Positions 10,867 through 33,128 are shown, counted from the first letter of the stretch. The stretch: 64,000 bases of DNA from Eubacteriales bacterium (GCA_045541555.1 JAZQJH010000036.1:44650-108649), one strand, 5' to 3'. The notes: a model not told the origin generated them from the letters alone. Translations and numbers: made by a program.

Positions 10867-10934
10867 TTGTACAATGTTACCAAAAATGCCGCTCTAATTT
10901 TTTTATGAGTGGCATTTTTGTTCACTTTGTACAA
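10867..10934. promoter_or_regulatory. Two candidate TTGT-N9-ACAA operators (10867-10883, one mismatch; 10918-10934, perfect)
   Basis: ttgtacaatgttaccaa and ttgttcactttgtacaa; the same motif recurs at 31699 and 33064. Confidence 0.6.
10881..10920 (+). terminator. Terminator after pncB
   Basis: caaaaatgccgctc...gagtggcatttttg inverted repeat. Confidence 0.7.
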
Positions 10935-11014
10935 TAGATTATGTAAATCAAAAAGAAAACGAACTTTATTTTCAAAAAAATTAGCAATTTGTTTGTGAAA
11001 AATTAAAAAATATA

Positions 11015-11043
11015 TTGAAATTGTATATATATTGTGCTATAAT
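11015..11043 (+). promoter_or_regulatory. SigA-type promoter of the import operon
   Basis: TTGAAA-17 bp-TATAAT with extended TGn. Confidence 0.8.
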
Positions 11044-11172
11044 CATCCCGATAGTATGGATAAAAGCGATCAAATCTCTTTTGTGTACTTTGTTCAGTTA
11101 CGGCTGTTCAAAAAGTCAAAAGTGGTGGAAGCGCGACTTGAGATACTGATCAATTCAACTTGGAGGTAGTTT

Positions 11173-14100
11173 ATGAAAGACAAAAATGCAAGTTCTGTTC
11201 TTCGGTCTTTCCTGGCGGCTATAATGGTTCTCGTTATGGCTCTGTCCATGTCCACCTTCGTCTTTGCGGACGAAGGTGCGGATTCGGCGCCCGGAGAAAC
11301 GGCTGGAACAGAATCCGGTGATGCAGGAGAGAGTAGCTCTGCTCCTTCTACGAGTGGTCCTGCCGAAACCGTAACGCCTGAAGGTGGCGTTGGGGAGTCC
11401 GAAGTTTCTGTCGTCGGTTTCTATCGTGACGGCAGATATGTGGACTACTATAATGAGCACATTGCAGATGACGTTGTAATGCCCGAGATCGTGGTGGATG
11501 CAACTCAGATTACTGCTGCAACTGCTCCTTATGAAGTAAAAGATTCCTACGAGAATCGCGATTCGGTTGTTGTGACAACCGGTAGCGGCGAATTGACCTA
11601 TACGATCAATGTGACCAAAACCGGTATGTATGCAATCGGTTTGGAATACTTCCCCTTGCTGGGTGACGGCAACGGAAAGGATTATGAGCTTGCTGTTAAG
11701 CTGGACGGTACTCTTCCTCATGATGATGCTGCACGGTTCACTTTGAAACGTAATTGGATTGATGAGGATGATGAACATAACTTCGACGACATCGGCAATG
11801 AGCTTTATTCCAAGCAAGTTGAATCCGCAAAGTGGTTAAGTAAGGATATTCGTGATCCGGATGGCGTGTTTGATGATGCAGTGAAGTTTTATCTAACTGC
11901 CGGCGAGCACACCGTCACTTTCTCTTTCAACACCGGTGTTCTGGCTTTGGATAAGATTCGTTTCTATAACGAAGGCGAGCCGATGTCCTATGACGATTAT
12001 ATTGCTTTGAATGATTCCAATGGTGCTTCTGATGCAACTGAATCTTTCGAACTGGAAGCAGAGTCTTTCTTGGACAAGAGTGAGTCCTTGATTCAGCCGG
12101 CCTATGACCGCAGTGATCCGAAGGTTACTCCTTATAGCATCAGCAAGACCCGTCTGAACGTTATCGGCGGTGAAAACTGGAATACGACCGGTCAGACCGT
12201 CAATTGGATTATTGATGCTCCCGTCGATGGTTACTACACTATCGGCGTCCGCTACCGTCAGTCTTACGTCGAGGATTCTACTTCCTACAGACGTCTTTAC
12301 ATCGACGGTGGGGTTCCTTTTGAAGAAGCCAATACCATTGGTTTTCCCTTTGAAACCGGCTATCAGTATAAGGTTCTTGGCGGCAAGGATGAAGATGGGA
12401 AGAACTTCAATTATAAGTTCTATCTGACTGCCGGTAGACATGAGCTTTCCATGGAAGTCGTTATTGGTGATATGGCAGGGGTCAGCCGCGAGGCAGAAGA
12501 CCTGGTTTATCAGTTGAACTACATCTATCGTAAGATCATCATCATTACCGGTACTTCTCCCGATACTTATCGCGACTATGAATTGGATAAGAAGATTTCC
12601 GATCTGGAAGAAATGTTCAAATCCGTTTATAGTGATCTCCTTTCGATTAAGGAGCAGGTAATTGCCATTAACGGCAACCTGGGCTCTGCTTCCATTATTA
12701 CTATTTTGGAAAAGCAGATCAATGACTTTATTGAAAAGCCCTATGCTATTCCGGATCGTCTTTCTACCTTTAAAGATAATATAAGTACTCTCAGTTCCTG
12801 GATGCTGGCGTTGCGTAATCTCCCGGTTCAGTTTGATAAAATGATTTTCACCGGTGCAGGTGCAAAACCCACTCGTCAGACCGCAAACTTCTGGGAAGGC
12901 GTTTCCCATGAGGTACGTGCGTTTATTTCCTCCTTTGTCGATGACTACACTTCCGTCGGTGCTGAGAGCGCCAGTGGACGTACCTTGACCGCATGGGTTG
13001 GTACCGGTCGTGACCAAGCAACCGTTTTGAAAACTTTGACCACCAACTACTTCACTCCGGAAACTGATATTTCCGTGAACGTCGGTTTGGTTCCGTTGAG
13101 CATTTTGCAGAAGGCGATCGTAGCCGGCCGTGGTCCGGACATTGCACTGCATGTCAGTCGTACCGAGCCGATGAACCTGGGTTATCGTAACGCGGTTGTT
13201 GACCTGACTCAGTTTAGTGACTTTGAAGAGGTGGCAAATCGTTTTTCAAGATTCGCTCTTACGCCTTATACCTTAAGCACTTATGATGAGAATGGCAATA
13301 AGATCAATAAGATCTTTGCTCTTCCTGAGACTCAGGACTTCAAATTGATGTTCTATCGCACGGATATCTTTAGCGAGTTGGGCATCAGTGCTCCCAATAC
13401 CTGGGACGATCTGGACAATATTTTGCCTTATATTCAGGCAAACAACATGACGGTTGGTCTCGATCCCAATGCCAGTGGTGAGACCTTCTATACCTTGATT
13501 CTTCAGAGCGGTCATACTCCTTATAGAGAGGATGGTACCGGAACTAACTTTACCGAGCAGTATGCAATCGATGCGTTTGAAAGATGGACCCGCTACTATC
13601 TCCAGTACGACCTGCCCACTGACTATAGCTGGTACAGCCGTTTCAGAAACGGCGAGATGCCCTTGGTTATTCAAGGTTATTCCAGTATTACTTATCTGCA
13701 GGAGTCTGCTCCTGAATTAAATGGTCTTTGGAACGTTGCTCCCATGCCCGGTATTCTGAACGAGGAGACCGGTGTTGTTGATCGTACCGACCAATCCAGT
13801 GGTATGAGTGGCTGTATGATCATTGAGAGAACTATTGAGAAGGCGAAGAATCCGGAGCAGAAGCTTCAGGATGCTTGGACCTTCCTGAAGTGGTGGACCT
13901 CTAGAGATATCGCTGCTGAATACGGCAACCGCGTTGAGATGGCGATCGGTTCTGTTGCAAGATATTCTACTGCAAACCTGGAAGCATTTGAGAAGATCAA
14001 ATGGTCCAGCGCCGAGGCGGCCGTTATCAGAGCACAGCGTGAGTGGACGCGTGAGACTCCCGAATTGGTCGGTGGTTATTACGTAAGCCGTAACGTGATC

Positions 14101-14238
14101 AACGCTTTCCGTAACGTTGTTAACAATAAGGCGAATCCGAGAGAAAAACTCTTCTATTATAATAATGAAATCAACGATGAGATTTGGCGTAAGCGTTCTG
14201 AATATCATCTGTCTGTACCGGAGGAGGCGAGAAAATAA
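11173..14238 (+). CDS. Very large extracellular solute-binding protein (family-1 SBP C-terminus, carbohydrate-binding-like N-terminal domains)
   Basis: Sec signal peptide; beta-rich N-terminal ~430 aa; SBP features GRGPDIA, ALPETQDF.LMFYRTDIF, AWTFLKWWTS. Confidence 0.85.
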   Translation: MKDKNASSVLRSFLAAIMVLVMALSMSTFVFADEGADSAPGETAGTESGDAGESSSAPSTSGPAETVTPEGGVGESEVSVVGFYRDGRYVDYYNEHIADDVVMPEIVVDATQITAATAPYEVKDSYENRDSVVVTTGSGELTYTINVTKTGMYAIGLEYFPLLGDGNGKDYELAVKLDGTLPHDDAARFTLKRNWIDEDDEHNFDDIGNELYSKQVESAKWLSKDIRDPDGVFDDAVKFYLTAGEHTVTFSFNTGVLALDKIRFYNEGEPMSYDDYIALNDSNGASDATESFELEAESFLDKSESLIQPAYDRSDPKVTPYSISKTRLNVIGGENWNTTGQTVNWIIDAPVDGYYTIGVRYRQSYVEDSTSYRRLYIDGGVPFEEANTIGFPFETGYQYKVLGGKDEDGKNFNYKFYLTAGRHELSMEVVIGDMAGVSREAEDLVYQLNYIYRKIIIITGTSPDTYRDYELDKKISDLEEMFKSVYSDLLSIKEQVIAINGNLGSASIITILEKQINDFIEKPYAIPDRLSTFKDNISTLSSWMLALRNLPVQFDKMIFTGAGAKPTRQTANFWEGVSHEVRAFISSFVDDYTSVGAESASGRTLTAWVGTGRDQATVLKTLTTNYFTPETDISVNVGLVPLSILQKAIVAGRGPDIALHVSRTEPMNLGYRNAVVDLTQFSDFEEVANRFSRFALTPYTLSTYDENGNKINKIFALPETQDFKLMFYRTDIFSELGISAPNTWDDLDNILPYIQANNMTVGLDPNASGETFYTLILQSGHTPYREDGTGTNFTEQYAIDAFERWTRYYLQYDLPTDYSWYSRFRNGEMPLVIQGYSSITYLQESAPELNGLWNVAPMPGILNEETGVVDRTDQSSGMSGCMIIERTIEKAKNPEQKLQDAWTFLKWWTSRDIAAEYGNRVEMAIGSVARYSTANLEAFEKIKWSSAEAAVIRAQREWTRETPELVGGYYVSRNVINAFRNVVNNKANPREKLFYYNNEINDEIWRKRSEYHLSVPEEARK

Positions 14239-15200
14239 TGGCTTCTGTATCAAAGCAAAGAGAAATTGAATTATTAAAGAAGAAAAGATTATCCTTCTCC
14301 GAGAGAGCGGCATTAACTTGGCGTGAGATGAAGGATAATAAGATCAACTATTTGATGATCTTGCCCTTCGTGGTTTTCTTCACCTTGTTTACAATTATTC
14401 CTATCGGTGCTTCGATCTTTTTATCTTTTACTCGTTACGACATTTTGAATACTCCGATCTTCATCGGTTGGGATAACTACCTGAGAATGTTCTTGGAGGA
14501 TAGCGTCTTTCTGATCTCCTTGAAGAACACCTTGAAGTTTGCAATTATCACCGGCCCCGTTGGTTACCTGCTTTGCTTTATCTTTGCATGGTTTATCAAC
14601 GATCTGCCCCCGATTGCGAGAGCGTTCTTTACCGTGGTATTCTACGCTCCTACTTTGGCAAACGTTTACTTTATTTTCCAGTATCTGTTCAGTGCCGATA
14701 TGTACGGTTTGATCAACTCCATCATGATGAACCTGGGCATGATCGATGAACCGATTGCATGGTTGAAGAACACGAAGTATATGATGAATATCGTTATCAT
14801 CGTGCAGTTGTGGTGTTCTTTGGGTACCAGCTTCCTTTCCTTCGTCGCCGGTTTGCAGAACCTGGATCCCTCTCTTGCTGAGGCCGGTGCGATCGATGGC
14901 GTTCGTAATCGCTTCCAAGAACTCTTTTACATCACCTTGCCGCAGATGGGCGGTATGCTGATGTTCGGTGCGGTTATGCAGATTTCTTCTGCATTCGCAG
15001 TCGGCAGTATTTCTTCTTCGCTGCTGGGTAACCCGTCAGTCGACTACGCAGGTCATACATTGGTCTTGCATATTTCCGACTTCGGTCACACCCGGTTTGA
15101 GTTGGGTTATGCTTCCGCAATCGCAGTGGTGCTGTTTGCAATGATGATCTTGAGTAAGGTCTTGATCAACAAACTGCTTGCGCGGTTCTCACATGATTAA
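14238..15200 (+). CDS. Carbohydrate ABC transporter permease
   Basis: Multiple TM helices; EAA loop EAGAIDGV. Confidence 0.92.
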   Translation: MASVSKQREIELLKKKRLSFSERAALTWREMKDNKINYLMILPFVVFFTLFTIIPIGASIFLSFTRYDILNTPIFIGWDNYLRMFLEDSVFLISLKNTLKFAIITGPVGYLLCFIFAWFINDLPPIARAFFTVVFYAPTLANVYFIFQYLFSADMYGLINSIMMNLGMIDEPIAWLKNTKYMMNIVIIVQLWCSLGTSFLSFVAGLQNLDPSLAEAGAIDGVRNRFQELFYITLPQMGGMLMFGAVMQISSAFAVGSISSSLLGNPSVDYAGHTLVLHISDFGHTRFELGYASAIAVVLFAMMILSKVLINKLLARFSHD

Positions 15201-15220
15201 GAAAGGAGAGTGAACGAAAT

Positions 15221-16078
15221 ATGTCTACAAAATTAAGAAGAACTAAGGCTTCTGTTGTTGGCGATGTATCTACATACCTTTTGCTCGCTCTCTACGCTGC
15301 CTTCATGTCCCTGCCTTTGGTTTACGCCATTGTGCAGTCTATAAAACCTTACAACGAATTGTTCATCTTCCCGCCGCGGTTCTTTACTAAAAACCCGACT
15401 TTGATGAGCTTTAGAAAACTGTTTGATTTAACGTCTACCTCTTGGGTGCCGTTCTCCAGATATGTTTTCAATACCCTTACCAATACCATTGTAGGTACGG
15501 TTATTCATATTATTTCTGCAGCTATGTGTGCTTATCCTTTGGCAAAGAATAAGTTCCCCGGTAAAAATATTATCTTCAACCTGGTTGTTTGGTCGTTGCT
15601 GTTTACCGGTGGTGTTACCGAAATTCCTGTTTACTTGGTAATGTCCTATTTGGGTATTATCGACACCTATTTTGCTTACTGGTTGCCTGAAATTGCGGCT
15701 ACCATGGGCGTATTCCTTTTGAAACAGAATGTTGCAGAGATTCCGAATGCAATGATCGAGGCTGCTCGTATTGACGGCGCAGGGGAGTGGAAGATTCTTT
15801 GGTCCATCGTCATGCCGTCCATTAAACCGGCTTGGCTTACCCTGGCAATCTTCTCTTTCCAGAGAAACTGGAATGCAACCGCAGGATCCTACATTTATAC
15901 AGAGACCCTCAAGACGTTGCCTACCGCCTTGAGCCAGATCACTGCCGCCGGTAGTGTGGCACGTGCCGGCGAGGCGTATGCTGCTTCTGTATTGATGATG
16001 ATTCCGCCGATCATCTTCTTTATCTTTGCTCAGAGTAGTACGGTGAAGACGATGGCGCACGCCGGTATCAAGGGTTAA
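15221..16078 (+). CDS. Carbohydrate ABC transporter permease
   Basis: EAARIDGAGE EAA motif, TM helices. Confidence 0.92.
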   Translation: MSTKLRRTKASVVGDVSTYLLLALYAAFMSLPLVYAIVQSIKPYNELFIFPPRFFTKNPTLMSFRKLFDLTSTSWVPFSRYVFNTLTNTIVGTVIHIISAAMCAYPLAKNKFPGKNIIFNLVVWSLLFTGGVTEIPVYLVMSYLGIIDTYFAYWLPEIAATMGVFLLKQNVAEIPNAMIEAARIDGAGEWKILWSIVMPSIKPAWLTLAIFSFQRNWNATAGSYIYTETLKTLPTALSQITAAGSVARAGEAYAASVLMMIPPIIFFIFAQSSTVKTMAHAGIKG

Positions 16079-16091
16079 GGGGGTGCACGAC

Positions 16092-17651
16092 ATGAAAAAA
16101 AGATTGACGAAAGTCGGTGCTATTGCTTTAGTAATGCTGGCGTTGGTTTCTATGCTGGCAATGCCCTCTTCGGCCTACATTGCATATAATACCTACAATT
16201 ATAATTATTACGGAGAAGCAATTGAAACTCCTTCCGGTTATGCTCCGGAAACCATTTATTATGGAGAAGACTTAGGGATCGGTACATTATCCAATGCGAT
16301 CGACCTCTATGTCAGCCCTCAGAATGAAATTTACATTCTGGATTATTATGGAAGTGACAACCTTCCCCGGTTGCACATCTTTGATTTTAATTTTAAGCAT
16401 ATTAAAACTCTTTCGACTCTTACTGCAAACGGTAATCCCTATATCATGAAATTGCCGGAGAGTGTTGTCGTAGATAAATTTGGTTACATCTATATTTGCG
16501 ACACCGGTAACCGTCAGATCTTGAAATTGGATAAGGATAAGAGCGGTAAGATCGTTCAGACTGTTGGCGCACCGAATTCCGATCTTTTTGAGGGTGAGTT
16601 TAAACCGTCTAAGATCGCGATAGCAAAGAATATGTCTTTGTATGTTATTTGTACCGGTGCCTTGGATGGTATCATGGAGTTTGACGAAAGAGGAACTTTT
16701 CTCCGCTATTTCGGTGCTCCTGATGTTCAGATGTCTGTTACGGATATGATTGCGTTGACTTGGAGACGGATGTATCGTTCGATCCTTGGTAGTGATGCAG
16801 ATAACTCTTTTGTCACCTTCGTTCCTACTGAGTTTTCTAACTTGGTTGTAGACGATTTTGGATTTGTTTATTCCGTTATTGCCGCGACCGAGGATTCCAA
16901 TACCGAGCAGTTGCTGAAAATGAACTTCTTGGGTAACAACATTCTTGACCCGATGGCCAAGAGTACTCAGAAGGTAAATGATACCCTTTCAAAAACGTAC
17001 GGAGACCTGCAGCGTCGTGGTACTAAAACCGAAGGTAATATCTTTACGGATGTTGCAGTAGATAAGGACGGGTTCATTACCATGCTGGACTCCAACCTTT
17101 GCAAGGTGTTTGAGTACGATCCGGAAGGCAACCTGACCTTTGTTTACTCCGGTAAAGGTAGTCAGAAGGGTATGCTAAACAGACCGGCTGCAATTGCAAA
17201 GCTCGGCAAAAAGACTTTGATTTTAGATTCTCATTTTGGCTCGATTACCATTTTCGATTTAACTCAGTATGGCGACACTCTTCATGACGGCATTATGCTT
17301 TATGATCAGGGTCTTTACACCGATGCTGAAACCTATTGGAATGTAATTTTGAAGCAAAATGCAAACTGTGAATTAGCACATATCGGCCTTGGTAAGGTTT
17401 ATTATCAGTTTGGCCGCTATGAAGATGCAATTCATCACTTTAAGATTGCCAATGACCGGATGAACTATCAGGATACTTATGCGCTTTACAGAGAAGCTGT
17501 AATCGCTGATTATTTTGATTTGATCATGACTCTGTTGGTTGTATTGGTTGTCGTTGCAATCGTATGGAAGGTCTTTGGTAAAAAGATCATTGAAATGATC
17601 AAAAACAGAAAACAAGGAGGTGGAGAAGATGAGTCAGAAATTGTGGAGTAA
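16092..17651 (+). CDS. Secreted NHL-repeat (beta-propeller)/TPR protein with C-terminal membrane anchor
   Basis: Signal peptide; repeats such as PESVVVD..GYIYICDTGNRQI and PSKIAI; TPR-like AHIGLGKVYYQFGRYEDA; C-terminal TM helix; ATG 16092 follows the RBS. Confidence 0.8.
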   Translation: MKKRLTKVGAIALVMLALVSMLAMPSSAYIAYNTYNYNYYGEAIETPSGYAPETIYYGEDLGIGTLSNAIDLYVSPQNEIYILDYYGSDNLPRLHIFDFNFKHIKTLSTLTANGNPYIMKLPESVVVDKFGYIYICDTGNRQILKLDKDKSGKIVQTVGAPNSDLFEGEFKPSKIAIAKNMSLYVICTGALDGIMEFDERGTFLRYFGAPDVQMSVTDMIALTWRRMYRSILGSDADNSFVTFVPTEFSNLVVDDFGFVYSVIAATEDSNTEQLLKMNFLGNNILDPMAKSTQKVNDTLSKTYGDLQRRGTKTEGNIFTDVAVDKDGFITMLDSNLCKVFEYDPEGNLTFVYSGKGSQKGMLNRPAAIAKLGKKTLILDSHFGSITIFDLTQYGDTLHDGIMLYDQGLYTDAETYWNVILKQNANCELAHIGLGKVYYQFGRYEDAIHHFKIANDRMNYQDTYALYREAVIADYFDLIMTLLVVLVVVAIVWKVFGKKIIEMIKNRKQGGGEDESEIVE

Positions 17652-18309
17652 TCTCTATGTGTTTTTTCAGATGATCAAAGAACGCTTTTTTGTCGGGAAA
17701 AAGAATCCGTTTTTAATGATTATCCATCCCGTCGAGACGATGGAAGATCTGAAGTATAAGAAAAACGGTTCGGTTGTTTATGCAACTCTGCTTCTCCTGG
17801 CCTTTACTGTTTCTGCTATTATTCAGGATGTTGGTACCGGGTTTATTTATACCACTTTGCGGATCAAGGATTTTAATATCCTGACTGTACTGTGCACCTC
17901 TGGTTTGATGGTGTTGCTGTTTGTTGTTGCAAACTGGGCGCTTTGTACGTTGCTTAGCGGTGAGGGTAGACTGATTGATATTTATATCATGACCTGCTAT
18001 AACCTGACCCCGTTGATTGCCTACAATTTGGTTAGCACTTTCCTTTCCAGATTCTTGGTAAGCAGCGAATTCTCCTTTGTTACTATTGCAGGCGCTTGTT
18101 GCACGATGTGGTTTGTTGTCCTCATGTTCTACGGTGCCATGACCATCCATAACTACAAGTTCTGGGCAACTTTGCTGAACCTGATTGCATCCTTGGTTGC
18201 CATGGCGATCATTTTCTTCTTGATCTTTTTGTTTGTTGTTTTGGTTCAGCAGTTGTATGTATTTGTTTTGACAATCTATACGGAATGCCGTATGAGAATT
18301 CTGTCTTAA
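17629..18309 (+). CDS. Yip1-like multi-pass membrane protein
   Basis: HPVETMEDLK N-terminal motif plus about 5 TM helices; position between NHL and DUF5696-like genes. Confidence 0.7.
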   Translation: MSQKLWSNLYVFFQMIKERFFVGKKNPFLMIIHPVETMEDLKYKKNGSVVYATLLLLAFTVSAIIQDVGTGFIYTTLRIKDFNILTVLCTSGLMVLLFVVANWALCTLLSGEGRLIDIYIMTCYNLTPLIAYNLVSTFLSRFLVSSEFSFVTIAGACCTMWFVVLMFYGAMTIHNYKFWATLLNLIASLVAMAIIFFLIFLFVVLVQQLYVFVLTIYTECRMRILS

Positions 18310-18328
18310 GAAAGGGGAGAAGTGAATA

Positions 18329-20557
18329 ATGAAAAAATTAATTTCTATTTTATTGTCCATCGTGTTGCTTCTTTCCTGCATTTCGACTGTGACCCTTGTG
18401 GCGAGTGCTGCTCCGGCAACCCTTGATGTTCCCGGCAACTACAGACTCGTGAATGAAAATGCTAATCTTGCTCTTTATATTGATAGCACTGCCGGTAATT
18501 TTGGCGTTATGAACGTCAAGACCGGTACGGTTTGGTATTCCAATCCGATTGATTGGGAAAGCGATACCTTTGCTCAGGGCGAGAGCCACGAAGAGCTTAC
18601 TACGAAGGTTGCAGTTGAGTACCTTACCGAGTCCTATTCGACCGGAACGGTTACTTCGCTGAAGGCTTCTACGATTACCGAGAAGCAGGGTAAAGATTGG
18701 ATTATGACCTTCTATTTTAAAGGAAATAATACCAACTTTACTATTCCGGTTAAGCTCGCTTTAAAAGAAGATTATCTTCATATGGAATTAATGATCGACC
18801 GCATCAAAGAGCTTGGGAATACTCGCGTTCTTTCTGTGAAACTGTTTCAGTTCTTTGGTGCAGCCGGTGTGAATGATACCGGTTATGGCCTGATCCCCGA
18901 TGGTTCCGGCTCTTTAATGGAGTTTAATCGCGGTGTACTGAATTCCTATGAGTTCGGTATTGATGGCGAGGGTCAGTTCTTTGCTCCGAACCCCACTGAA
19001 GCAGCGACCGATAAATATTTCACCAACTGGAACGAACCGCTTCGTCTGCCGGTGTTTGGTATGGTGAAGAATTCTGATGCATACCTCAGCATTGTAGAAA
19101 GCGGGGCTGCTGTGGCAGATCTTCACGCTTATATCAGTGGTTTTAAGAATAGTTACAATACTATGTTTACAACGATCCACGTTCGTGATACCCAAAAGCG
19201 TCGTAGCTCCACCGGTAAAGCCGGTAGTGGTTCTTACTATTCCGATTCTTTGCCCGAAAACTATATCGCAAGATATTACTTTATGAATGGCGAAGATGCG
19301 AATTACATCGGTATGGCAGAGAAGTACAGAGAGTACTTGATTAATGAGCAGGGGATGAAGAAGGTTGACGACTCTGTGTCTAATACGCTTGCAATCTCTC
19401 TTTATGGTGCAGTTAAGAAAGCTAAGCATTTTCTCGGTATTCCTTATACCGGTCAGGAAGCACTGACGACTTATAAAGAAGCTGAAGAGTTGATCGACCG
19501 TCTGAGCAATGATAAAGTTGATAAAGTTTTTGTCAATTATTTGGGTTGGGCTTCCGGTGGTTTAGAAACAACCATGGATCCGGAGATTTCCCCGAATTCC
19601 AAGCTGGGCGGAAAGAAAGCGCTCCAGAAATTGATCGATAAGGCAAATAGCGCAAACTATATGTTGAGTTTCGATATGGATCTGCAGGCTTTCTATGGCG
19701 GAAATTCTTCTGTCAAAAAGTTTAAGAATACTGCCTATGGTCTGGATTCTTTTCCTGTTGCGATCTACAGAGACAGAATTTATGCAGCTGGCGCAAAATC
19801 TACGTCCGACATTGTTTCTCAGTTGATCCATCCCGCCCATATGCCAGGCTATGCTAATGAATTTCTTAGCAATGCTTCTGCGAAGAATATTCATAATTAT
19901 TCCTTTAACTCAGTTGGCGATACCCTTTACTGTGCATACAATCTTCAGGATGTGATCACCCGTGACGGTTCTGAGGATGCGATGATTGAACTCTTTAGAG
20001 CAGCTGCTGAAAAGGCGGATGAAAACGGCGGTATTATTAATACCTTGGGTGGTAATGGTTATGCCATGTCTTATGTTGACAACGTCTTAGAAGCTCCTGT
20101 TTATGGTAGCCATAATAACATTGCGCTTCAGGAAGTGCCGTTCTATCAAATTGTTTTCCGCGGTTATGTGAACCTTGCAAGTACCCCTGTCAATCTGGAC
20201 TCTGAGCAGGATGATTTGATTTTGAAGTTGGCTGAGACCGGCATGAGCCTCTATTATCTCTTGATGGATGCAGAGTCTACTGCTTTCCAGGATACCAACT
20301 TTACTGCTTCTTATGCTTGCGAGTTGGACGATCATTATGATGATATGTTGACTCAGTACAATCGCATGAAGCCGCTTTACAATGCAGTTGGGAACAGTGA
20401 GATTACGAATTATCAGATTGTTTCCGATACTGTGAAGATCACAACCTTCAAAAATGGCGCAAAAGTGTATGTGAATTATGGCACAGCTGAAACGACCGTA
20501 GAGGGTGTTAAGATCGGTGCAAAAGACTTTACTGTGGTAGGAGGTGCAAATGCATGA
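18329..20557 (+). CDS. Secreted DUF5696-like protein
   Basis: Signal peptide; GYGLIPDGSGSLM, LPVFGM, GW..GG, VPFYQIVF.G, KGAKVYVNY motifs recalled for this family. Confidence 0.7.
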   Translation: MKKLISILLSIVLLLSCISTVTLVASAAPATLDVPGNYRLVNENANLALYIDSTAGNFGVMNVKTGTVWYSNPIDWESDTFAQGESHEELTTKVAVEYLTESYSTGTVTSLKASTITEKQGKDWIMTFYFKGNNTNFTIPVKLALKEDYLHMELMIDRIKELGNTRVLSVKLFQFFGAAGVNDTGYGLIPDGSGSLMEFNRGVLNSYEFGIDGEGQFFAPNPTEAATDKYFTNWNEPLRLPVFGMVKNSDAYLSIVESGAAVADLHAYISGFKNSYNTMFTTIHVRDTQKRRSSTGKAGSGSYYSDSLPENYIARYYFMNGEDANYIGMAEKYREYLINEQGMKKVDDSVSNTLAISLYGAVKKAKHFLGIPYTGQEALTTYKEAEELIDRLSNDKVDKVFVNYLGWASGGLETTMDPEISPNSKLGGKKALQKLIDKANSANYMLSFDMDLQAFYGGNSSVKKFKNTAYGLDSFPVAIYRDRIYAAGAKSTSDIVSQLIHPAHMPGYANEFLSNASAKNIHNYSFNSVGDTLYCAYNLQDVITRDGSEDAMIELFRAAAEKADENGGIINTLGGNGYAMSYVDNVLEAPVYGSHNNIALQEVPFYQIVFRGYVNLASTPVNLDSEQDDLILKLAETGMSLYYLLMDAESTAFQDTNFTASYACELDDHYDDMLTQYNRMKPLYNAVGNSEITNYQIVSDTVKITTFKNGAKVYVNYGTAETTVEGVKIGAKDFTVVGGANA

Positions 20558-21807
20558 GCAATCGAAATGAAGAATTGAAAGTTGACGCAATGGAAGCTCA
20601 GGCTGATGCAACCGAAGTTACCGAAGTGATTGAAATCGAGGAAGTTGCTGAACCTGAAAAGGTAGAGTATGACAAGCAGAAGATTGCTGCTGAGATCATG
20701 GCTCGGGATCCTGAGCATGCACGTGAGATCGTGAAGGCGCGTTTGGTACAGATGACTCCCGAGCAGATTGATGCGATGCGCGTTGCAAAGGCTGAAAAAG
20801 CTGCGGCTGCAGAAGCAGAGGCAGAAACTGCTCCCGTTGTAGAGACTCCTGTTGCGGCTGCTCCCGTAAAAGTGGCTAAGGTTGAAAAGGCAACGAAAAA
20901 GAAAAAGGAGAAAAAGAATAAGCGCGGTATTTCTTATGAATCCAAGCAAGCGTTTACCGGATTTATGTTTGTTTTGCCGTGGTTCCTTGGATTCCTTTTG
21001 TTCTTTGCTGCACCTTGCTTCCAGTCCTTGCAGTTTGCCTTCTCTAAGGTATCTGTTTTTGAGAACTACAAATGTACCTGGTATGGTCTTGGGAACTTTA
21101 AAGATCTCTTGACCAGTGGTGCCGCTTACTTGCAGGCCTTGCTGTCTACCTTGACTGATCTGGCGGTTAATGTGCCGGTCATTTTGATCTTCAGTTTGTT
21201 TGTGGCTGTATTGCTGAATCGTAAGTTTGTGGGTCGTGGCTTGGTTCGTGGCATCTTCTTCCTCCCGGTAATCGTTACTACCGGTGTGGTTATGTCCACC
21301 TTTAACGCCACCAGCGATGCGAATGCAGTTATGGAAGGTAACGTTGGTAACGGCGTTTTGTTCGAAGTTGCCAATGCTGCTGATTTCCTTGGCGAATTGG
21401 GCTTGAATGAAACCTTGACCAATTATATGTCGATGGTTGCGGACCGGATCTTTAACGTGGTTTGGGATTCCGGTATCCAGATTCTCTTGTTCCTTGCCGC
21501 TTTGCAGGGTATTTCTCCTTCGCTTTATGAGGCAAGTAACGTAGAAGGTGCTACCGCTTGGGAAACCTTCTGGTTGATTACGTTCCCCAACGTGGCTCCA
21601 ATCATTCTCGTTAATATCGTTTACACCATCGTTGATACCTTTGGTGATACTGAAAATGCAGTTTTGATTGAAATTGATAAGTACATCAACAGTACCTTTA
21701 ACTTTGGCGCAGCGGCGGCAGCATCCTGGATATTCTTCCTGGTTGTATTAATTATAATCGGTGTTATTTTCGGCATCTTCCAGTTGCTCGGAAAAACCAA
21801 CGATTAA
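20554..21807 (+). CDS. Carbohydrate ABC permease with ~120-aa charged N-terminal extension
   Basis: SLYEASNVEGATAWE EAA motif; TM helices begin only after ~residue 135. Confidence 0.88.
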   Translation: MSNRNEELKVDAMEAQADATEVTEVIEIEEVAEPEKVEYDKQKIAAEIMARDPEHAREIVKARLVQMTPEQIDAMRVAKAEKAAAAEAEAETAPVVETPVAAAPVKVAKVEKATKKKKEKKNKRGISYESKQAFTGFMFVLPWFLGFLLFFAAPCFQSLQFAFSKVSVFENYKCTWYGLGNFKDLLTSGAAYLQALLSTLTDLAVNVPVILIFSLFVAVLLNRKFVGRGLVRGIFFLPVIVTTGVVMSTFNATSDANAVMEGNVGNGVLFEVANAADFLGELGLNETLTNYMSMVADRIFNVVWDSGIQILLFLAALQGISPSLYEASNVEGATAWETFWLITFPNVAPIILVNIVYTIVDTFGDTENAVLIEIDKYINSTFNFGAAAAASWIFFLVVLIIIGVIFGIFQLLGKTND

Positions 21808-21824
21808 GAAAGGGGGGAAAGTAA

Positions 21825-22823
21825 ATGAAAATTGTTAAAGCATTCAAACACCAGTTTGGTGAAAACAGCAAGAAGGCCGACAAAAGAATGTGGGGCTATC
21901 TTGCTACTAAGTTTATTGGTAATCTTACAATTGCATTGATTCTGATTGGTCTTTCTTATATCATTCTCTACCCCTTGATCTACAGTATTTCTCAGGCTGT
22001 CCGTTCTCAGTTGGATATGTATGATACGACGATCATCTATATCCCCAAGCACTTCACTCTTGAGAACTTCAAGTTGGCTTGGCGCGTACTGGAGTTCCCC
22101 GCAGCGCTGTCTAATACGTTCCACCTTTCCATCTGGCCGACTCTTTTGCAGGTTTGCTCTTGTGCCTTGGCTGGTTATGGATTTGCACGGTTCAAATTTG
22201 TGGGTAAGAATCTTTTGTTCTTCCTGGTATTGCTGACGATCATCGTACCGCCCTCTACCATCATGGTTCCTCTGTATACGAATTTCCGTATGTTTGATCC
22301 TCTGTATATCGCAACTGCGATGCATTCCTTTGGATGGATCAAGGAGCCCTATCTGATTTTGACGGACTCCCTCTGGTGCTTCCTGCTTCCTGCTTTGCTG
22401 GCGGCAGGTTTGAAGAGCGGTTTGTTTGTGTTCGTTTACCGTCAGTTCTTTAGCGGTTTCCCCAAGGAATTGGAAGAGGCTGCTTACATCGATGGTTGCG
22501 GCGCCATGAAGACCTTCTTGCGCATCTTGGTTCCCAATGCAGCACCTGCATTCGTTACGGTGTTCTTGTTCTGTATCGTATGGTATTGGAACGATTACTA
22601 CACCATTCCGATGTTCGTACCGAATATGCAGACCCTGCCTGACGCATTGGGTAACATGTACTCCACGATGACCGGTGAAACGTTTAGAGGTGAAGATGCA
22701 ATTTCCCTCTATCCGATTCTGCGTGCCGGTATTATTCTGTATATCACTCCGCTGTTGATTACATTTATTCTATTGCAGAAGAAGTTTACGGAATCTATTG
22801 CACGAAGCGGTATCGTTGGTTAA
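21825..22823 (+). CDS. Carbohydrate ABC transporter permease
   Basis: ELEEAAYIDGCG EAA motif. Confidence 0.92.
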   Translation: MKIVKAFKHQFGENSKKADKRMWGYLATKFIGNLTIALILIGLSYIILYPLIYSISQAVRSQLDMYDTTIIYIPKHFTLENFKLAWRVLEFPAALSNTFHLSIWPTLLQVCSCALAGYGFARFKFVGKNLLFFLVLLTIIVPPSTIMVPLYTNFRMFDPLYIATAMHSFGWIKEPYLILTDSLWCFLLPALLAAGLKSGLFVFVYRQFFSGFPKELEEAAYIDGCGAMKTFLRILVPNAAPAFVTVFLFCIVWYWNDYYTIPMFVPNMQTLPDALGNMYSTMTGETFRGEDAISLYPILRAGIILYITPLLITFILLQKKFTESIARSGIVG

Positions 22824-22882: not shown

Positions 22883-22887
22883 CGTTT

Positions 22888-23052: not shown

Positions 23053-23106
23053 TTTATCATCCCTTTCTCGTTAGTAATATTAGTATACCAAATGTGGTGT
23101 TTTATA

Positions 23107-23155
23107 TTTACATTTGACACGGAATATAGTATAATAAATCTGTATAATTGTCGAA
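23107..23155 (+). promoter_or_regulatory. SigA promoter with a downstream Spo0A-box-like heptamer
   Basis: TTTACA(23107)-17 bp-TATAAT(23130); TGTCGAA at 23149-23155. Confidence 0.5.
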
Positions 23156-23199
23156 ATTTTTGATCTTTGGAATTTTTTGTTTTATAATGAGGTTTTTAT

Positions 23200-25413: not shown

Positions 25414-25428
25414 TCAAGGAGACTATGA

Positions 25429-26178
25429 ATGGAATTTGAAGAGAAAAAACAGTCTGAATTAGTTTTTGGTAAAAATAATGTAACGGAATTGCTGCTTTCC
25501 GATGCAACGGTTGAACGTATTTATCTTGCCGGCGATCCTAAAAGTAATAATTTTAAAAAGATCATTGCTCTTTGCAAAACCAAAGGGGTTCCTATTGTTC
25601 ATACCGACACCAATGCAATCAATCGCAAGGCGCCGAAGGTCAATCATCAAGGGGTGATTGCATATTGTGCCGAAAAGGAGTATGCAACTGTTGAGGATAT
25701 TCTAAAGGCTGCAGAAGAACGGGGAGAGGCTCCGTTTATTATTGTGGCCGATGAAATTGTTGATCCGCATAATTTGGGCGCAATTCTGCGTTCTGCAGAC
25801 GCATTTGGTGCGCATGGCGTGATTATTTCCAAGCGGCGTGCAGTCGGTTTGACTCCTTCGGTTGCAAAAGCCAGTGGTGGTGCAATCCACTATATTCCGG
25901 TGGCCAGAGTTGCAAATTTGGTGCAGACTATCGAGGATTTGAAAAAGAAGAATATATGGGTGTACGGATGCGATATGGCCGGAGAAAATGTCTATTATGA
26001 GCAGGATTATTCCGGTGGAGTTGCATTAATCGTGGGAAGCGAAGAATCGGGTATATCTCGTTTGCTGCGCGAACAATGCGACTTTTTTGTCAGAATTCCA
26101 ATGAAAGGGAAGATTTCCTGCTTGAACGCTTCCGTCGCAGCATCTGTTATTATGCAGGAGATTGCTAAAAATCGTTAA
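25429..26178 (+). CDS. rlmB: 23S rRNA (Gm2251) methyltransferase, TrmH/SpoU family
   Basis: NHQGVIA, DPHNLGAILRSA, VGSEESG, CLNASVAA. Confidence 0.92.
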   Translation: MEFEEKKQSELVFGKNNVTELLLSDATVERIYLAGDPKSNNFKKIIALCKTKGVPIVHTDTNAINRKAPKVNHQGVIAYCAEKEYATVEDILKAAEERGEAPFIIVADEIVDPHNLGAILRSADAFGAHGVIISKRRAVGLTPSVAKASGGAIHYIPVARVANLVQTIEDLKKKNIWVYGCDMAGENVYYEQDYSGGVALIVGSEESGISRLLREQCDFFVRIPMKGKISCLNASVAASVIMQEIAKNR

Positions 26179-26195
26179 TTGAGTGAGGATAAAGA

Positions 26196-28229: not shown

Positions 28230-28241
28230 TTATTTAAATGC

Positions 28242-28270
28242 TTGCATTTTGTTTGGTGATATTGTATAAT
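28242..28270 (+). promoter_or_regulatory. SigA promoter of the EF-G paralog
   Basis: TTGCAT-17 bp-TATAAT. Confidence 0.75.
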
Positions 28271-28325
28271 GTATTCATGAATTATTTTTAGCGTTCCATC
28301 CGGAGTCGCGAAAGGAGATCTAATC

Positions 28326-30377
28326 ATGAGCACACCTGCAAAAGACATTCGTAACGTATGTTTGATCGGTCATAAAGGGAATGGTAAAACTACCCTGGCC
28401 GAGTCTATGCTTTATTTCAGTAAAATAATCGAACGGTTAGGTAAGACCGAGCAAGGTAATACGATTCTCGATTTTGACGCTGAAGAAATTAAGCGTAAAT
28501 GTTCGATTTCTCTTTCGATGGCTTCTTTTGAATATAAGAAGACCAAGATTAATTTGATTGATGTTCCCGGCAACTATGATTATGAAGGCGATCAGCTTTC
28601 CGGTCTGGAAGTGGCCGATCTTGCATTGATTGTTCTTAATGCAAAGAATACCGTCTCTGTCGGTACCGAAAAAGCTTGGCAGAAAACCGAGAAGAAGATG
28701 ATGCCACGTGCATTCTTTATTGCAGGCTTGGACGATGAAAATTCCGACTTTTATAGTATTGTTGAGCAGTTGCACGCTAAATTTGGTGCAAATCAGATTC
28801 TGCCGATTACCTTACCGATCATTGAGGATAATAAACTGGTCGGTACGGTAAACGTTATTACCAATGAAGGTTATCGTTTTGGTCAGGGTGTTGTGCCTGT
28901 TCCCGCTAATATGCAGGATAAGGTTAATACTTATTATCATTCCGCACTGGAGGCAATTGCCGAGACGGATGATGCTTTGATGGATAAATTCTTTGCAGAT
29001 GAAGAGTTTACCAAGGATGAGTTGGGCGAGGGCCTGAAAAAAGCAGTCGCAATGCGCTTGATCTATCCCATCTTCTGCGGTGTGCCGACGGAAGTTCGCG
29101 GTATTTATCAGTTGCTGGAGGCGATTGTGGATTATTTCCCCACTCCTCTTTGCAATGGTGCTACCAAGGCTCTTAAAAATGGAGATGAGGTTGATCTGGA
29201 GTGTAATCCTGACGGGCCCATGGTCCTGCGCGTATTCAAAACTGTAGCCGACCCGTTTGTGGGAAAGATGTCTTTCTTCAAGGTGTACTCCGGTACGGTT
29301 AAAAAGGATAAATCGTATCTGAATACAAAACGCGGCGAAAGCGAAAAGATTGCTCATGTTTATACGCCGTTTGGTAAAAAGCAAAATGAAGTTGATGAAT
29401 TGCAAGCCGGCGATATTGGCGTATTTACTAAACTTTCCATTACCGGTACCTCAGACGTGCTTTGTGATAAAGATTTTCCGGTTACAATTCCGGCGATCGA
29501 ATTCCCGAAAGCAAATTATAGTAAGGCGGTCATCTCCAAGGCAAAAGGCGATGAAGAAAAGATTGCTCAAGGTATTAACCGCATGATCGAAGAGGATCCT
29601 ACCCTTAAAATGAAGGTGGATGCTGAAACCAAGCAGATGGTTCTCTCGGGTTTCGGCGATCTTCAATTGGATGTCGTTGTATCGAAGCTTGCTTCTAAGT
29701 TTGGTGTTAATGTGGAATTGGGAGAAGTGAAAGTACCTTATCGCGAAGCAATCCGCAAGAAAGTTAAGGTGGAAGGAAAGCATAAGAAGCAGTCCGGCGG
29801 TCATGGTCAGTATGGTCATGTGTGGATTGAGTTTGAGCCGCTGTATGAAGGTGAATTTGAATTTGCCGAGTCGGTATTTGGCGGTGCTGTGCCGAAGAAC
29901 TATTTCCCGGCAGTTGAAAAGGGGTTGCGTGAGTCTATTACAAAGGGTGTTTTGGCCGGTTATCCTGTGACCGGTTTGAAGGCGACCTTGCTGGATGGTT
30001 CATATCACCCGGTTGATTCTTCTGAAATGGCGTTTAAGACTGCGGCATCGATCGCCTTTAAAGAGGGTATGAAGGCTGCCAATCCCGTCCTTTTGGAGCC
30101 GGTTGGTTCTCTTACCGTTCATGTATCGGATGCTTTGATGGGCGATATTATTGGAGATATTAATAAGCGTCGTGGTCAAATTCTTTCGATGGATGCTTCT
30201 GAAACCAGAGGCTATAAGATCGTTACCGCTACAGTTCCGATGAGCGAAATGAATTCTTATGCAATGGATCTTAGAAGCATGACCCATGCACGTGCTACCT
30301 TTAACCTTGAGTTTTTGGAGTATCGTGAGGCTCCGGCGAACATCACGCAAAAGGTTATCGCTGAAAAAGCAGAATAA
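28326..30377 (+). CDS. fusA2: Elongation factor G paralog (EF-G2-like)
   Basis: GHKGNGKT, EEDPT, PYRE, KKQSGGHGQYG, GSYHPVDSSEMAF; not in the str operon. Confidence 0.9.
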   Translation: MSTPAKDIRNVCLIGHKGNGKTTLAESMLYFSKIIERLGKTEQGNTILDFDAEEIKRKCSISLSMASFEYKKTKINLIDVPGNYDYEGDQLSGLEVADLALIVLNAKNTVSVGTEKAWQKTEKKMMPRAFFIAGLDDENSDFYSIVEQLHAKFGANQILPITLPIIEDNKLVGTVNVITNEGYRFGQGVVPVPANMQDKVNTYYHSALEAIAETDDALMDKFFADEEFTKDELGEGLKKAVAMRLIYPIFCGVPTEVRGIYQLLEAIVDYFPTPLCNGATKALKNGDEVDLECNPDGPMVLRVFKTVADPFVGKMSFFKVYSGTVKKDKSYLNTKRGESEKIAHVYTPFGKKQNEVDELQAGDIGVFTKLSITGTSDVLCDKDFPVTIPAIEFPKANYSKAVISKAKGDEEKIAQGINRMIEEDPTLKMKVDAETKQMVLSGFGDLQLDVVVSKLASKFGVNVELGEVKVPYREAIRKKVKVEGKHKKQSGGHGQYGHVWIEFEPLYEGEFEFAESVFGGAVPKNYFPAVEKGLRESITKGVLAGYPVTGLKATLLDGSYHPVDSSEMAFKTAASIAFKEGMKAANPVLLEPVGSLTVHVSDALMGDIIGDINKRRGQILSMDASETRGYKIVTATVPMSEMNSYAMDLRSMTHARATFNLEFLEYREAPANITQKVIAEKAE

Positions 30378-30431
30378 ACTGAAAAAACAGACCATATAAA
30401 TTATTGAAATCAATTCGGAAGAGGGTTGCTC

Positions 30432-30896
30432 ATGTTTATATGGTCTGTTAAATTAAATCGCAATTTAATATGGGGCTTTTGCGCTGCACTTTGCCTTTCT
30501 ATTGGTGGAATTGCGGTCTTTACTCCGAAGAATTCTACCGACGTATTGAAAAGTGCGGTGAATACTGCCGGCAAAACGACTGAACAGCAGATTGCGTTTT
30601 TGAATTCGTTTGGTTATGAGGTGGAAGCAGAGCCTGCCTTGATTGAAGAAGTGATTATTCCGACGGAATTTGACGAAAAATATACGGCATATAATAACTA
30701 TCAGAAATTAAGCGGCTTTGATCTTACTAAACATAAGGGCGACCGTGTTAAAAAATACACTTATAAAGTGACCAACTATCCCAATCAGAAGAGTGGTGTC
30801 AATGCCAATATTCTGGTTTATAAAGGAAAGGTTATCGGTGGAGATGTTTCTGCCGCAACTTTGGATGGCTTTGTTCACGGCTTTGTGAAAGAATAG
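30432..30896 (+). CDS. DUF4830-like protein
   Basis: N-terminal TM helix; IIPTEFD..Y..YN..QK.SGFDL..HKG..VKKYTY; KVIGGDV. Confidence 0.75.
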   Translation: MFIWSVKLNRNLIWGFCAALCLSIGGIAVFTPKNSTDVLKSAVNTAGKTTEQQIAFLNSFGYEVEAEPALIEEVIIPTEFDEKYTAYNNYQKLSGFDLTKHKGDRVKKYTYKVTNYPNQKSGVNANILVYKGKVIGGDVSAATLDGFVHGFVKE

Positions 30897-30900
30897 GGAT

Positions 30901-30928
30901 GGCTGCGCCGGATACGGCGCAGCCTTTT
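30901..30928 (+). terminator. Terminator
   Basis: ggctgcgccg-gata-cggcgcagcctttt. Confidence 0.8.
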
Positions 30929-30935
30929 GAAGGAA

Positions 30936-31634
30936 ATGAGACTGGACAAATTTTTATGTGATACTTTGAATATGACACGTACCGAGGCTAAGAAGGCAAT
31001 TTCAAAAGGACGTGTTACCCTGGGAGGCATTCCTGCTAAAAGCGGAAGTTTGCAGGTGGGAGAAGGGGAGGTCTGCCTCGATCAAGTTCCGGTGGTCTAC
31101 CAACGATATTTTTATATCATGCTCCATAAGCCGGAAGGGTATGTTTGTGCAAATCGTGACAGTAAAAGTAAAACGGTTTTTGATTTGTTACCTGCTGAAT
31201 ATCAAAAAAAGGATCTCTTTGTTTGCGGTCGCTTAGATAAAGATACGACGGGTCTGGTATTGATCACCAATCACGGAGACTTGGCGCATCGCTTACTTGC
31301 ACCAAAAAAAGAAATCTTTAAGGAATACCTCGTTACCCTGCGTGATAGGGTGACGGATGATGATATTTGTCGGCTGAAGAACGGAATTGTTTTAAAGGAT
31401 GGCTTGGTATGTAAACCGGCATATTTTCAGCAATACGAGGATCGCTATGGACTTTTGAGGATCTCGGAAGGAAAGTATCATCAAATCAAGCGAATGTTTG
31501 CGTCGCTTGGAAATGAAGTGGTTGGCTTACATCGAAAAGCGATACACGGTCTTTCGCTGGATCCCAATTTGCCGGTGGGGGAATGCCGTTATTTAACAGA
31601 GGAGGAGATTATTTCTCTGAAATCGGTGGAATAA
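30936..31634 (+). CDS. RsuA-family pseudouridine synthase
   Basis: MRLDKFL S4 domain, GRLDKDTTGL, ISEGKYHQIKRM. Confidence 0.9.
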   Translation: MRLDKFLCDTLNMTRTEAKKAISKGRVTLGGIPAKSGSLQVGEGEVCLDQVPVVYQRYFYIMLHKPEGYVCANRDSKSKTVFDLLPAEYQKKDLFVCGRLDKDTTGLVLITNHGDLAHRLLAPKKEIFKEYLVTLRDRVTDDDICRLKNGIVLKDGLVCKPAYFQQYEDRYGLLRISEGKYHQIKRMFASLGNEVVGLHRKAIHGLSLDPNLPVGECRYLTEEEIISLKSVE

Positions 31635-31698
31635 TAGGATTGAAATGTTGGTCATATCCGCTAAAAAAGTAGCCAATTATTTTTTTGACAAAACCAAT

Positions 31699-31715
31699 TT
31701 GTGCACTATAAACAA
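31699..31715. promoter_or_regulatory. Candidate TTGT-N9-ACAA operator upstream of msmX
   Basis: ttgtgcactataaacaa, upstream of an extended -10 (TGgTATAGT at 31768-31776) with a weak -35. Confidence 0.6.
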
Positions 31716-31817
31716 ATTGTAAACATTAAATTTGTTCAAAAAAAGTATTTCAATTTTGCTATTGTTGTGGTATAGTATATATCAGTAAATCTATTGCTTT
31801 ATCAGGAGGTTTAACAC

Positions 31818-32927
31818 ATGGCAAGTTTGTCATTGAAAGGTATTTACAAAAGATATCCCGGCGGTGTAGTCGCAGTTTCTGATTTCAATCTTGAGATTGA
31901 AGATAAGGAGTTCTTGGTTCTCGTCGGTCCTTCCGGTTGCGGTAAGTCTACCACCCTTAGAATGATCGCAGGCCTGGAGGAAATCACGGAAGGTGAGCTG
32001 TTTATCGGCGACAAGCTGGTGAACGACGTTGCTCCTAAGGACAGAGATATTGCAATGGTGTTCCAGAACTACGCTCTGTATCCTCATATGACTTGTTTTG
32101 ACAACATGGCATTTGGTCTGAAGCTGAGAAAGACTCCCAAGGAGGAGATCAAGAGAAGAGTAGAAGAAGCTGCTAAGATCTTGGACATCAGCCATTTGCT
32201 CGACAGAAAGCCCAAGGCTTTGTCCGGTGGTCAGCGTCAGCGTGTTGCTCTGGGTCGTGCTATCGTCCGTGAGCCGAAGGTATTCTTGCTTGACGAGCCT
32301 CTTTCCAACTTGGATGCTAAGCTCCGTGCTCAGATGAGAACCGAGCTTTCTAAGATTCATCATAATTTAAAGACCACCTTCATCTATGTAACCCATGACC
32401 AGACCGAGGCTATGACCATGGCAACTCGTATCGTTGTTATGAAAGACGGTCTGATCCAGCAGGTTGATACTCCTCAGAATCTGTATCTCTATCCCTGCAA
32501 TATGTTCGTTGCTGGATTTATCGGTTCTCCTCAGATGAACTTTGTTAAGGTTGATCTGGTCGAGAAGAACGGCGACTATTACGTTGAGTTCGCCGGTAAC
32601 TCCCTGAAACTGCCCGAATCCAAGATCAATGATGAAGTTAAGGAAAAGGCTGGTCAGAAGGTTATTCTCGGTATTCGTCCCGAGCATGTTCATGATGAGG
32701 AAGAGTACCTGGCTAAGTTGCCTGAGTATACCATTACTTGCAACGTTGAAGTTGCTGAGTTGATGGGTTCTGAGACTTATCTGTATTTGGAGATCGAGGG
32801 TAATAAGTTTACCGCTCGCGTTTCTCCTAAGTCTACTGCTGCTGCCGATGATGTTATCAAGGCTGCTCTGGATCTCTCTTATTGCCATCTCTTTGATGCT
32901 GAAACTGAGAGAACTTTGATTAACTAA
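31818..32927 (+). CDS. msmX: Multiple-sugar ABC transporter ATP-binding protein (MsmX/MalK family)
   Basis: [33 protein letters not shown]-terminal OB/TOBE region. Confidence 0.93.
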
Positions 32928-32940
32928 TTTGATTTTTGGG

Positions 32941-32968
32941 GCCTCGCTTTTGCGAGGCGCGTTTTTCT
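32941..32968 (+). terminator. Terminator after msmX
   Basis: gcctcgc-tttt-gcgaggc followed by a T-rich tract. Confidence 0.7.
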
Positions 32969-33063
32969 TATCCATTTTGTCGAACGTTTTTTGCAATAAT
33001 ATTTGTTTTTGTTTGCATCTTTGAACAACGAAATTGACTGTAAAATGGTATTTTTTTACCCCG

Positions 33064-33128
33064 TTGTGCAATGTTAACAAATTATTTTAATAAAAACTGT
33101 TGAAATCGTTGCGAGTTTGTTGTAAAAT
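33064..33128 (+). promoter_or_regulatory. TTGT-N9-ACAA site (33064-33080) and SigA promoter of the CdaR gene
   Basis: ttgtgcaatgttaacaa; TTGAAA(33100)-17 bp-TAAAAT(33123). Confidence 0.65.

Follow-up and report, generated by a model that had tools for sequence, protein, structure and literature searches.

Do an importer without an ATPase gene, an orphan ATPase gene (msmX) and the gene of a PucR-like regulator share one operator, and which protein would recognise it? The question is raised by the window that we analysed, a stretch of 64,000 nucleotides (nt; C36:44650-108649, in an assembly of 1.78 Mb and 62 contigs), where the pattern TTGT-N9-ACAA occurs on the 5' side of all three. A preliminary description of the window had taken this shared motif to link the three units. 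We found that the link stands for msmX and the regulator gene, where the arms of the motif are specifically conserved in relatives, and that for the importer it is only suggestive.

A pattern search of the window returned the three perfect 17-mers that had been reported, each in its reported place:

Site 1, 10918-10934: TTGTTCACTTTGTACAA, read as TTGTTCA-ctt-TGTACAA, 5' of the importer
Site 2, 31699-31715: TTGTGCACTATAAACAA, read as TTGTGCA-cta-TAAACAA, 5' of msmX
Site 3, 33064-33080: TTGTGCAATGTTAACAA, read as TTGTGCA-atg-TTAACAA, 5' of the PucR-like gene

A fourth perfect TTGT-N9-ACAA was found at 59200-59216, within a coding open reading frame.

The dyad upstream of msmX and of the regulator gene

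Sites 2 and 3 are identical at 17/20 positions (TTGTGCA.T.T.AACAAATT), closer than the pattern demands, and by this measure they are one conserved element with the consensus TTGTGCA-N3-TnAACAA. The features around them are as follows:

31768-31776, plus strand: extended -10 of the msmX promoter, TGgTATAGT, found by eye, with a weak -35 (TTTCAA) 17 nt upstream
31818-32927, plus strand: msmX, an orphan ATP-binding cassette (ABC) ATPase of the MsmX/MalK/UgpC type (ABC_tran PF00005, OB_MalK PF17912, TOBE_2 PF08402)
32941-32958, plus strand: terminator hairpin between msmX and the PucR-like gene, from a terminator scan
33100-33128, plus strand: promoter of the PucR-like operon, TTGAAA-17-TAAAAT, from a promoter scan

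We compared these regions with their counterparts in relatives (loci labelled L001-L093), using one alignment for the region of the PucR-like gene (A2) and another for that of msmX (A3). Conservation of the arms was assessed by setting invariant arm columns against invariant other columns in the aligned orthologous regions (Fisher test).

Site 3 lies 19 nt 5' of the -35 of the PucR-like operon, with its centre at about -63 from the predicted start; start sites throughout this work are predictions from -10 boxes only, and all distances to a start rest on them. In 9 orthologous regions from species-level relatives (protein identity 80-96%, mean column identity 52%; A2), TTGTGCA and TAACA of the site are invariant while the remainder diverges, and the site stands constantly 18-20 nt 5' of the invariant -35 block TGTTGAAA. 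The arms have 12/14 invariant columns, against 29/232 of the other columns (p=7e-9). The dyad is also kept in L087, L088 and L090, where folD and two unknown genes take the place of msmX on the 5' side.

Site 2 has its centre at about -76 from the predicted msmX start. The msmX promoter had been described as having a weak -35; indeed, the scan gave no plus-strand promoter with at least 9/12 matches there, and the GTATAGT block is conserved among relatives (A3). The site itself reads TTGTGCA-gga-TCAACAA in L002, TTGTGCA-tta-TTTACAA in L086 and TTGTGTA-aga-TGTACAA in L003, and the better arm is switched to the other side in L004 (TAGTTTA-ttt-TGCACAA) and L089 (TAGTGTA-att-TGCACAA). Invariant columns make up 9/14 of the arms and 36/173 of the positions elsewhere (p=1e-3), and the spacer is variable. 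A site for a dimer would be expected to behave in this way, with arms that are kept, a spacer that is free and a near-consensus arm that switches sides.

The terminator at 32941-32958 implies that msmX and the PucR-like operon are separate transcription units, each with its own copy of the dyad. Judged from sequence, the dyad that they share is a real, conserved operator.

The regulator and its gene cluster

The genes downstream of Site 3 are the following:

33172-34257, plus strand: PucR-family regulator, 361 amino acids (aa) from the ATG, with Diacid_rec, GGDEF_2 and HTH_30 domains (Pfam); candidate binder of the dyads
34270-38228, plus strand: ftsE, ftsX, a coiled-coil M23 peptidase (PcsB-like) and an S41 protease (CtpA-like) (Pfam)

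The PucR-type helix-turn-helix (HTH) domain, HTH_30 (PF13556), scored 70.2 bits against a cutoff of 27 at residues 297-351, and the GGDEF-like domain (PF17853) scored 46.6 against 24.5. The preliminary description had named the regulator CdaR. This name does not hold, because the protein missed the CdaR equivalog NF008550 (87.4 bits against a cutoff of 612), matching it over residues 159-350 only. No glucarate, galactarate or glycerate genes were found near the PucR-like gene, either in the window or in about 75 of the 80 loci compared. The protein is the only PucR-family match in the assembly.

Gaps of 9-15 nt suggest that ftsE, ftsX and the M23 and S41 genes are probably co-transcribed with the regulator gene, under Site 3. 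We compared 80 loci from Ruminococcus, Oscillospiraceae, Acutalibacteraceae and other groups. The same four genes follow the regulator in about 75 of them and in nearly every locus where the downstream DNA was covered; msmX adjoins the PucR-like gene in only about 15. Identity of the regulator ranges over 64-96% in these loci, HTH residues 301-345 are about 99% conserved over 78 orthologues, and more than 7800 proteins match the regulator at E<=1e-100. The regulator is thus, by its domains and neighbourhood, a PucR-family member of an ftsEX-associated orthogroup, in a cluster conserved across Oscillospirales. Across families it is better conserved (64-68%) than FtsE (53-64%) or FtsX (27-39%). 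A search of the literature available to us returned no function for this regulator and no paper linking PucR with ftsEX in this sense.

The candidate binder of the dyad

It is plausible that this single PucR-family protein binds the dyads. It is favoured because the dyad follows its gene with or without an adjacent msmX, because it is the sole member of its family in the assembly and has a nearly invariant HTH, because similar dyads are over-represented on the 5' side of its orthologues in other genera, and because characterised PucR-type regulators, such as AdeR, PrcR/PutR, MabR and GabR, bind inverted repeats (PMC7652997, PMC13599513). All characterised regulators of this type except PucR itself act only as activators (PMC7652997, PMC13599513).

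The enrichment was seen in two ways. With a position weight matrix (PWM), scores of at least 14 occurred in 12/67 regions 5' of orthologues from other genera, against 0.49 in dinucleotide shuffles, a comparison limited by the non-independence of related loci and by a shuffle control that ignores promoter-like composition; 4 of the 12 matches were of the TTGTGTAAAAT/TTGTGTATAAT type and overlapped the extended -10. With a relaxed dyad, 7 matches were found in 20 kb upstream of orthologues and 7 in 540 kb elsewhere. Among the distant orthologues, L026 carries TTGTGCAAGATAAACAA, and L017 and L055 carry TTGGTGA-N3-T.CACAA.

The best-surviving alternative is that the dyads are genuine operators of one other transcription factor encoded elsewhere, the PucR-like operon being merely a target. 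We regard this as a serious though doubtful possibility. Conservation of a site says nothing about the identity of its binder, and about 55-60 of the 67 orthologues in other genera lack such an upstream dyad despite having almost the same HTH. The operator of PutR was given as TTGTGG-N5-CCACAA in the preliminary description; this exact sequence, which would tie TTGT..ACAA to the PucR family, we could not confirm. Another factor would, however, leave it unexplained that the dyad accompanies the pucR-like gene also in loci where msmX does not adjoin it, and that it is enriched upstream of distant orthologues. In addition, no motif of another family is known to have the 7-3-7 geometry of the dyad. 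Rex and CRP/FNR recognise TTGT-N10-ACAA, TnrA recognises TGTNA-N7-TNACA, XylR sites have a spacer of N7, and the sites of LacI and CcpA (CcpA cre) are even palindromes with a CG centre; Rex, CRP/FNR, TnrA/GlnR, XylR and CcpA cre were set aside on this geometry, as were Fur-type 7-1-7, FadR-type GGT-N3-ACC and SpoIIID sites.

Other elements were noted upstream of the orthologues. The Ruminococcus loci L026, L038, L041, L044, L046 and L053 share a different conserved block, TTAACA(G/C)TTTGTTAACAAATT, about 100-150 nt 5' of the PucR-like gene, upstream of a conserved TGTTACAATTTGTAATAT promoter region. The Ruminococcus upstream sequence TTAACAGTTTGTTAACAAATT was rejected as the same site, having only TGTTAACAAATT in common with Site 3, and k-mer enrichment upstream of the Ruminococcus orthologues was dominated by promoter elements. 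In L007, L009 and L059, which belong to other genera, TTGCAA(A/T)TGCACAAAAAA lies just 3' of the -35 of the PucR-like gene, and the strong-arm heptamer TGCACAA there falls within the promoter spacer, a repressor-like position.

The importer and its possible ATPase

The importer and the elements upstream of it are:

11173-22823, plus strand: ATPase-less importer of eight genes (Pfam: a 1021-aa substrate-binding protein (SBP), 2 permeases, TPR/NHL, Yip1, DUF5696, 2 permeases)
11015-11043, plus strand: importer promoter TTGAAA-17-TATAAT with TG, 11/12 matches, nearly invariant in 6 orthologues
10888-10919, plus strand: pncB terminator hairpin (10888-10913) and T-tract, GCCGCTC / GAGTGGC with a 12-nt loop, found by eye
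10867-10883, no strand assigned: one-mismatch copy of the pattern, TTGTACAATGTTACCAA, left arm conserved in 0/5 relatives
11081-11097, plus strand: leader element TTGTGTAcTTTGTTCAg, at about +32 to +48, with the half-site TTGTGTA

In profile searches the importer had no ATPase gene, and MsmX was the only ATPase of the MalK/MsmX type in the assembly. MsmX scored 488 bits with the UgpC/MalK subfamily model (cutoff 432), and the next-best matches were PotA, in a potABD-type cluster, and the ATPase of an unrelated importer. Its gene lies between rluB and the pucR-like gene and is not linked to permease genes. Only two CUT1 permease sets in the assembly lack an ATPase gene and could be partners of MsmX: the importer, with 4 permease genes, and a system on another contig, with 2. 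The latter (C19:7925-10940) is a second CUT1 sugar ABC system, which consists of a 434-aa SBP and two permeases; having no ATPase gene, it would also have to be served by MsmX. MsmX-type ATPases do serve several importers in trans, as the preliminary description had stated (PMC5730181, PMC7658222), and this known behaviour, together with the gene inventory, suggests that MsmX may energise the importer.

We collected the orthologous importer regions of 5 relatives (SBP identity 73-89%) through homologues and contig look-ups. In them Site 1 reads TTGTTTA-ttt-TGCACAA, TTGGTTA-tta-TGCACAA, TTGGTTA-tat-TGAACAA, TTGGCTA-tta-TGCACAA and TTGGTTA-tat-TGACCAA. The dyad outline TTG...A...TG..CAA thus persists in all 6 sequences, with a right arm that usually matches TTGTGCA in reverse complement. 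In L082-L084 the change is confined to the left arm. The most diverged relative, L093 (SBP 73% identical), has TTGGTTATATTGACCAA at L093:1245-1261, where TTGT/ACAA has become TTGG/CCAA; both outer arms are changed and the symmetry is preserved.

Is the importer, then, a member of the shared operator set? The sequences are suggestive only. It is possible that the sites of msmX and the PucR-like operon alone are functional, the importer copy being a fortuitous AT-rich match and the importer not being co-regulated with msmX; we consider this unlikely, although several points weigh on its side. The arms of Site 1 are no better conserved than the flanks (9/14 against 145/317 columns, p=0.14) and do not stand out because the whole importer upstream region is highly conserved. 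TTGT has become TTGG in 4/5 relatives and ACAA has become CCAA in L093. The left arm is in part the T-tract of the pncB terminator, which the site touches. The centre lies far upstream, at about -124 from the predicted importer start, and the promoter, which already matches the consensus at 11/12 positions, should not need an activator. The neighbouring copy at 10867 is clearly not conserved, and the bare pattern is common (19 copies in the genome). On the other side, the 6 sequences vary little or not at all in the right arm TG(C/A/T)(A/C)CAA and in the TTG...A of the left, the L085 version (TTGTTTA-ttt-TGCACAA) is almost the reverse complement of Site 2, the half-site TTGTGTA in the leader is conserved, and MsmX has just two possible partner systems.

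The two degenerate copies that had been reported near Site 1 are present, one with a single mismatch (10867-10883) and the other with the left arm only (11081-11097). We rejected the former as an operator; it is probably a chance match, not conserved in any of the 5 relatives. The latter reads TTGTGTACTTTGTTCAG. No other part of the leader is so well conserved: in 6 orthologues TTTGT.TA.TTTGTTC does not vary, whereas its flanks do. A half-operator and an RNA element are both possible roles for it. Rfam gave no family match in 10000-34500, which includes the leader element, and a possible hairpin with GTTCAAAAAG..CAAA had no covariation support in the orthologous leaders. The stem of the pncB terminator is upheld by fully compensatory changes in L085 (GACCTGCA / TGCAGGTC); the terminator was missed by the scan because its 12-nt loop exceeds 8 nt.

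The rest of the genome and the chance level

We scanned the assembly with the PWM. The window sites came out on top, followed by an intergenic site at C33:30077 and then by a steep drop, a ranking that is circular because the PWM was trained on these sites and their orthologues. C33:30077-30093 is a perfect TTGTGCAAAAAAAACAA, 11 nt 5' of the -35 of a TTGCAA-16-TACAAT promoter. The gene that begins at C33:30203 runs off the end of the contig; its product, secreted and more than 1341 aa long, is a large GLUG-repeat protein whose full-length relatives (about 2090 aa) have cohesin and dockerin domains and GLUG motifs and are scaffoldin-like. The upstream region of this gene is identical in both relatives found and therefore carries no footprint information, and no dyad was found upstream of the second ATPase-less system on C19. 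Together with the circular ranking and the reliance of all distances on predicted starts, these two results count against the reading that we prefer below. A further PWM match at 28253-28269 was discarded, as it falls in the spacer and -10 of the promoter of an EF-G paralogue. Helical phasing of the sites was discarded as well: their centres, at about -54, -63, -76 and -124 from predicted start sites, are out of phase.

The bare pattern of the preliminary description proved to be near chance in its frequency. In the window, TTGT-N9-ACAA was observed 4 times against 1.44 expected, which is not significant alone because 6/100 shuffles reach 4. In the whole 1.78-Mb assembly, a spacing of 9 was not enriched, with 19 matches against 8-18 for spacings 3-15. 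In contrast, the refined TTGTNCA-N6-ACAA gave 3 sites (4 strand matches) in the window against 0.15 expected, a count reached by 0/100 shuffles. That all three copies are chance short palindromes in AT-rich intergenic DNA, as these bare counts and the choice of the motif after inspection of the sequence might suggest, is very improbable and largely refuted for Sites 2 and 3, given that their arms are invariant in relatives while spacers and flanks diverge, that the pucR site keeps its distance from the -35 in 9 genomes, that the relatives are not too close for intergenic divergence (mean column identity of 52% in A2), and that shuffles never gave the refined count.

Discussion

Our preferred reading, which we hold tentatively, is that a dimeric HTH regulator, most probably the PucR-like protein, recognises the dyad, autoregulates and sets the level of MsmX, with the importer and the C33 protein as further targets. 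A dimer or higher oligomer of the PucR-like protein would bind the asymmetric 7-3-7 dyad TTGTGCA-N3-TnAACAA. At its own operon (pucR-like, ftsE, ftsX, M23, S41), binding upstream of the -35 would result in autoregulation. On the 5' side of msmX, the protein would set the level of the sole MsmX-type ATPase, probably as an upstream-bound activator, a role that fits the weak msmX -35. The importer, with its distal dyad (about -124) and leader half-site, and the cohesin/dockerin GLUG-repeat surface protein on C33 would be probable, less secure targets. As a speculation, repression or looping would account better than simple activation for the strong promoter, the distal dyad and the leader half-site of the importer. 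The link to the importer is the attraction of the finding, and it is also its weakest part.

A still broader picture can be drawn, which we think unlikely to be right in full. The PucR-like protein might tie the FtsEX/M23/S41 cell-separation module to uptake, through the sole MsmX and the giant importer, and to scaffoldin display, while sensing a small acid ligand via its Diacid_rec and GGDEF-like domains. This would be an undescribed growth-coupling circuit of gut Oscillospirales.

Our analysis offers a predicted operator and a small regulon for an uncharacterised and very widespread regulator; the regulon is previously undescribed and of an ordinary kind. If the PucR-like protein binds the dyads, they would be the first target motif, and the genes behind them the first regulon members, for a regulator of thousands of Oscillospirales genomes (Ruminococcus, Anaerotruncus and Ethanoligenens among them), where it is always beside ftsEX. 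Since the HTH is nearly invariant, the protein from any cultivable relative could serve to test the motif.

Comparison with known systems

The closest parallel is PutR (PrcR/YcgP), the PucR-family activator of putBCP in Bacillus subtilis, which, like the protein described here, has a GGDEF-like domain and a C-terminal HTH_30. The preliminary description was right that PutR binds a 17-bp inverted repeat (PMC7652997; PMC13599513). This repeat lies upstream of the promoter, and our element matches it in length and dyad geometry and likewise stands 5' of the -35. PutR, however, acts locally, on an operon for proline catabolism; here the gene of the candidate binder is the first of a cell-division hydrolase operon, and a transport ATPase gene also has the dyad on its 5' side.

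CdaR (SdaR) of Escherichia coli has the same set of domains, Diacid_rec, GGDEF_2 and HTH_30. The protein described here misses the CdaR equivalog model by a wide margin (87 against 612 bits), and no glucarate, galactarate or glycerate genes lie near its gene; the binding site of CdaR is not known (PMC7652997, PMC13599513).

GabR of Corynebacterium glutamicum, another PucR-type regulator, is an oligomeric activator that binds two inverted repeats just 5' of the -35 (PMC7652997). In contrast to our case, its repeats are of 21 bp and it is a strictly local regulator. It also lacks the GGDEF-like domain, which is present in every other characterised member of the PucR family.

If the arrangement proposed here is true, it would be an example of a 'multitask' ABC ATPase under a dedicated regulator, and not only under the global catabolite control to which msmX of B. 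subtilis is subject. As here, MsmX of B. subtilis is an orphan MalK-type ATPase with its own promoter, which serves CUT1 importers that have no ATPase (PMC5730181, PMC7658222). The two cases differ in that our assembly has only two candidate client systems, and in that the ATPase gene bears the same dyad as the neighbouring regulator gene.

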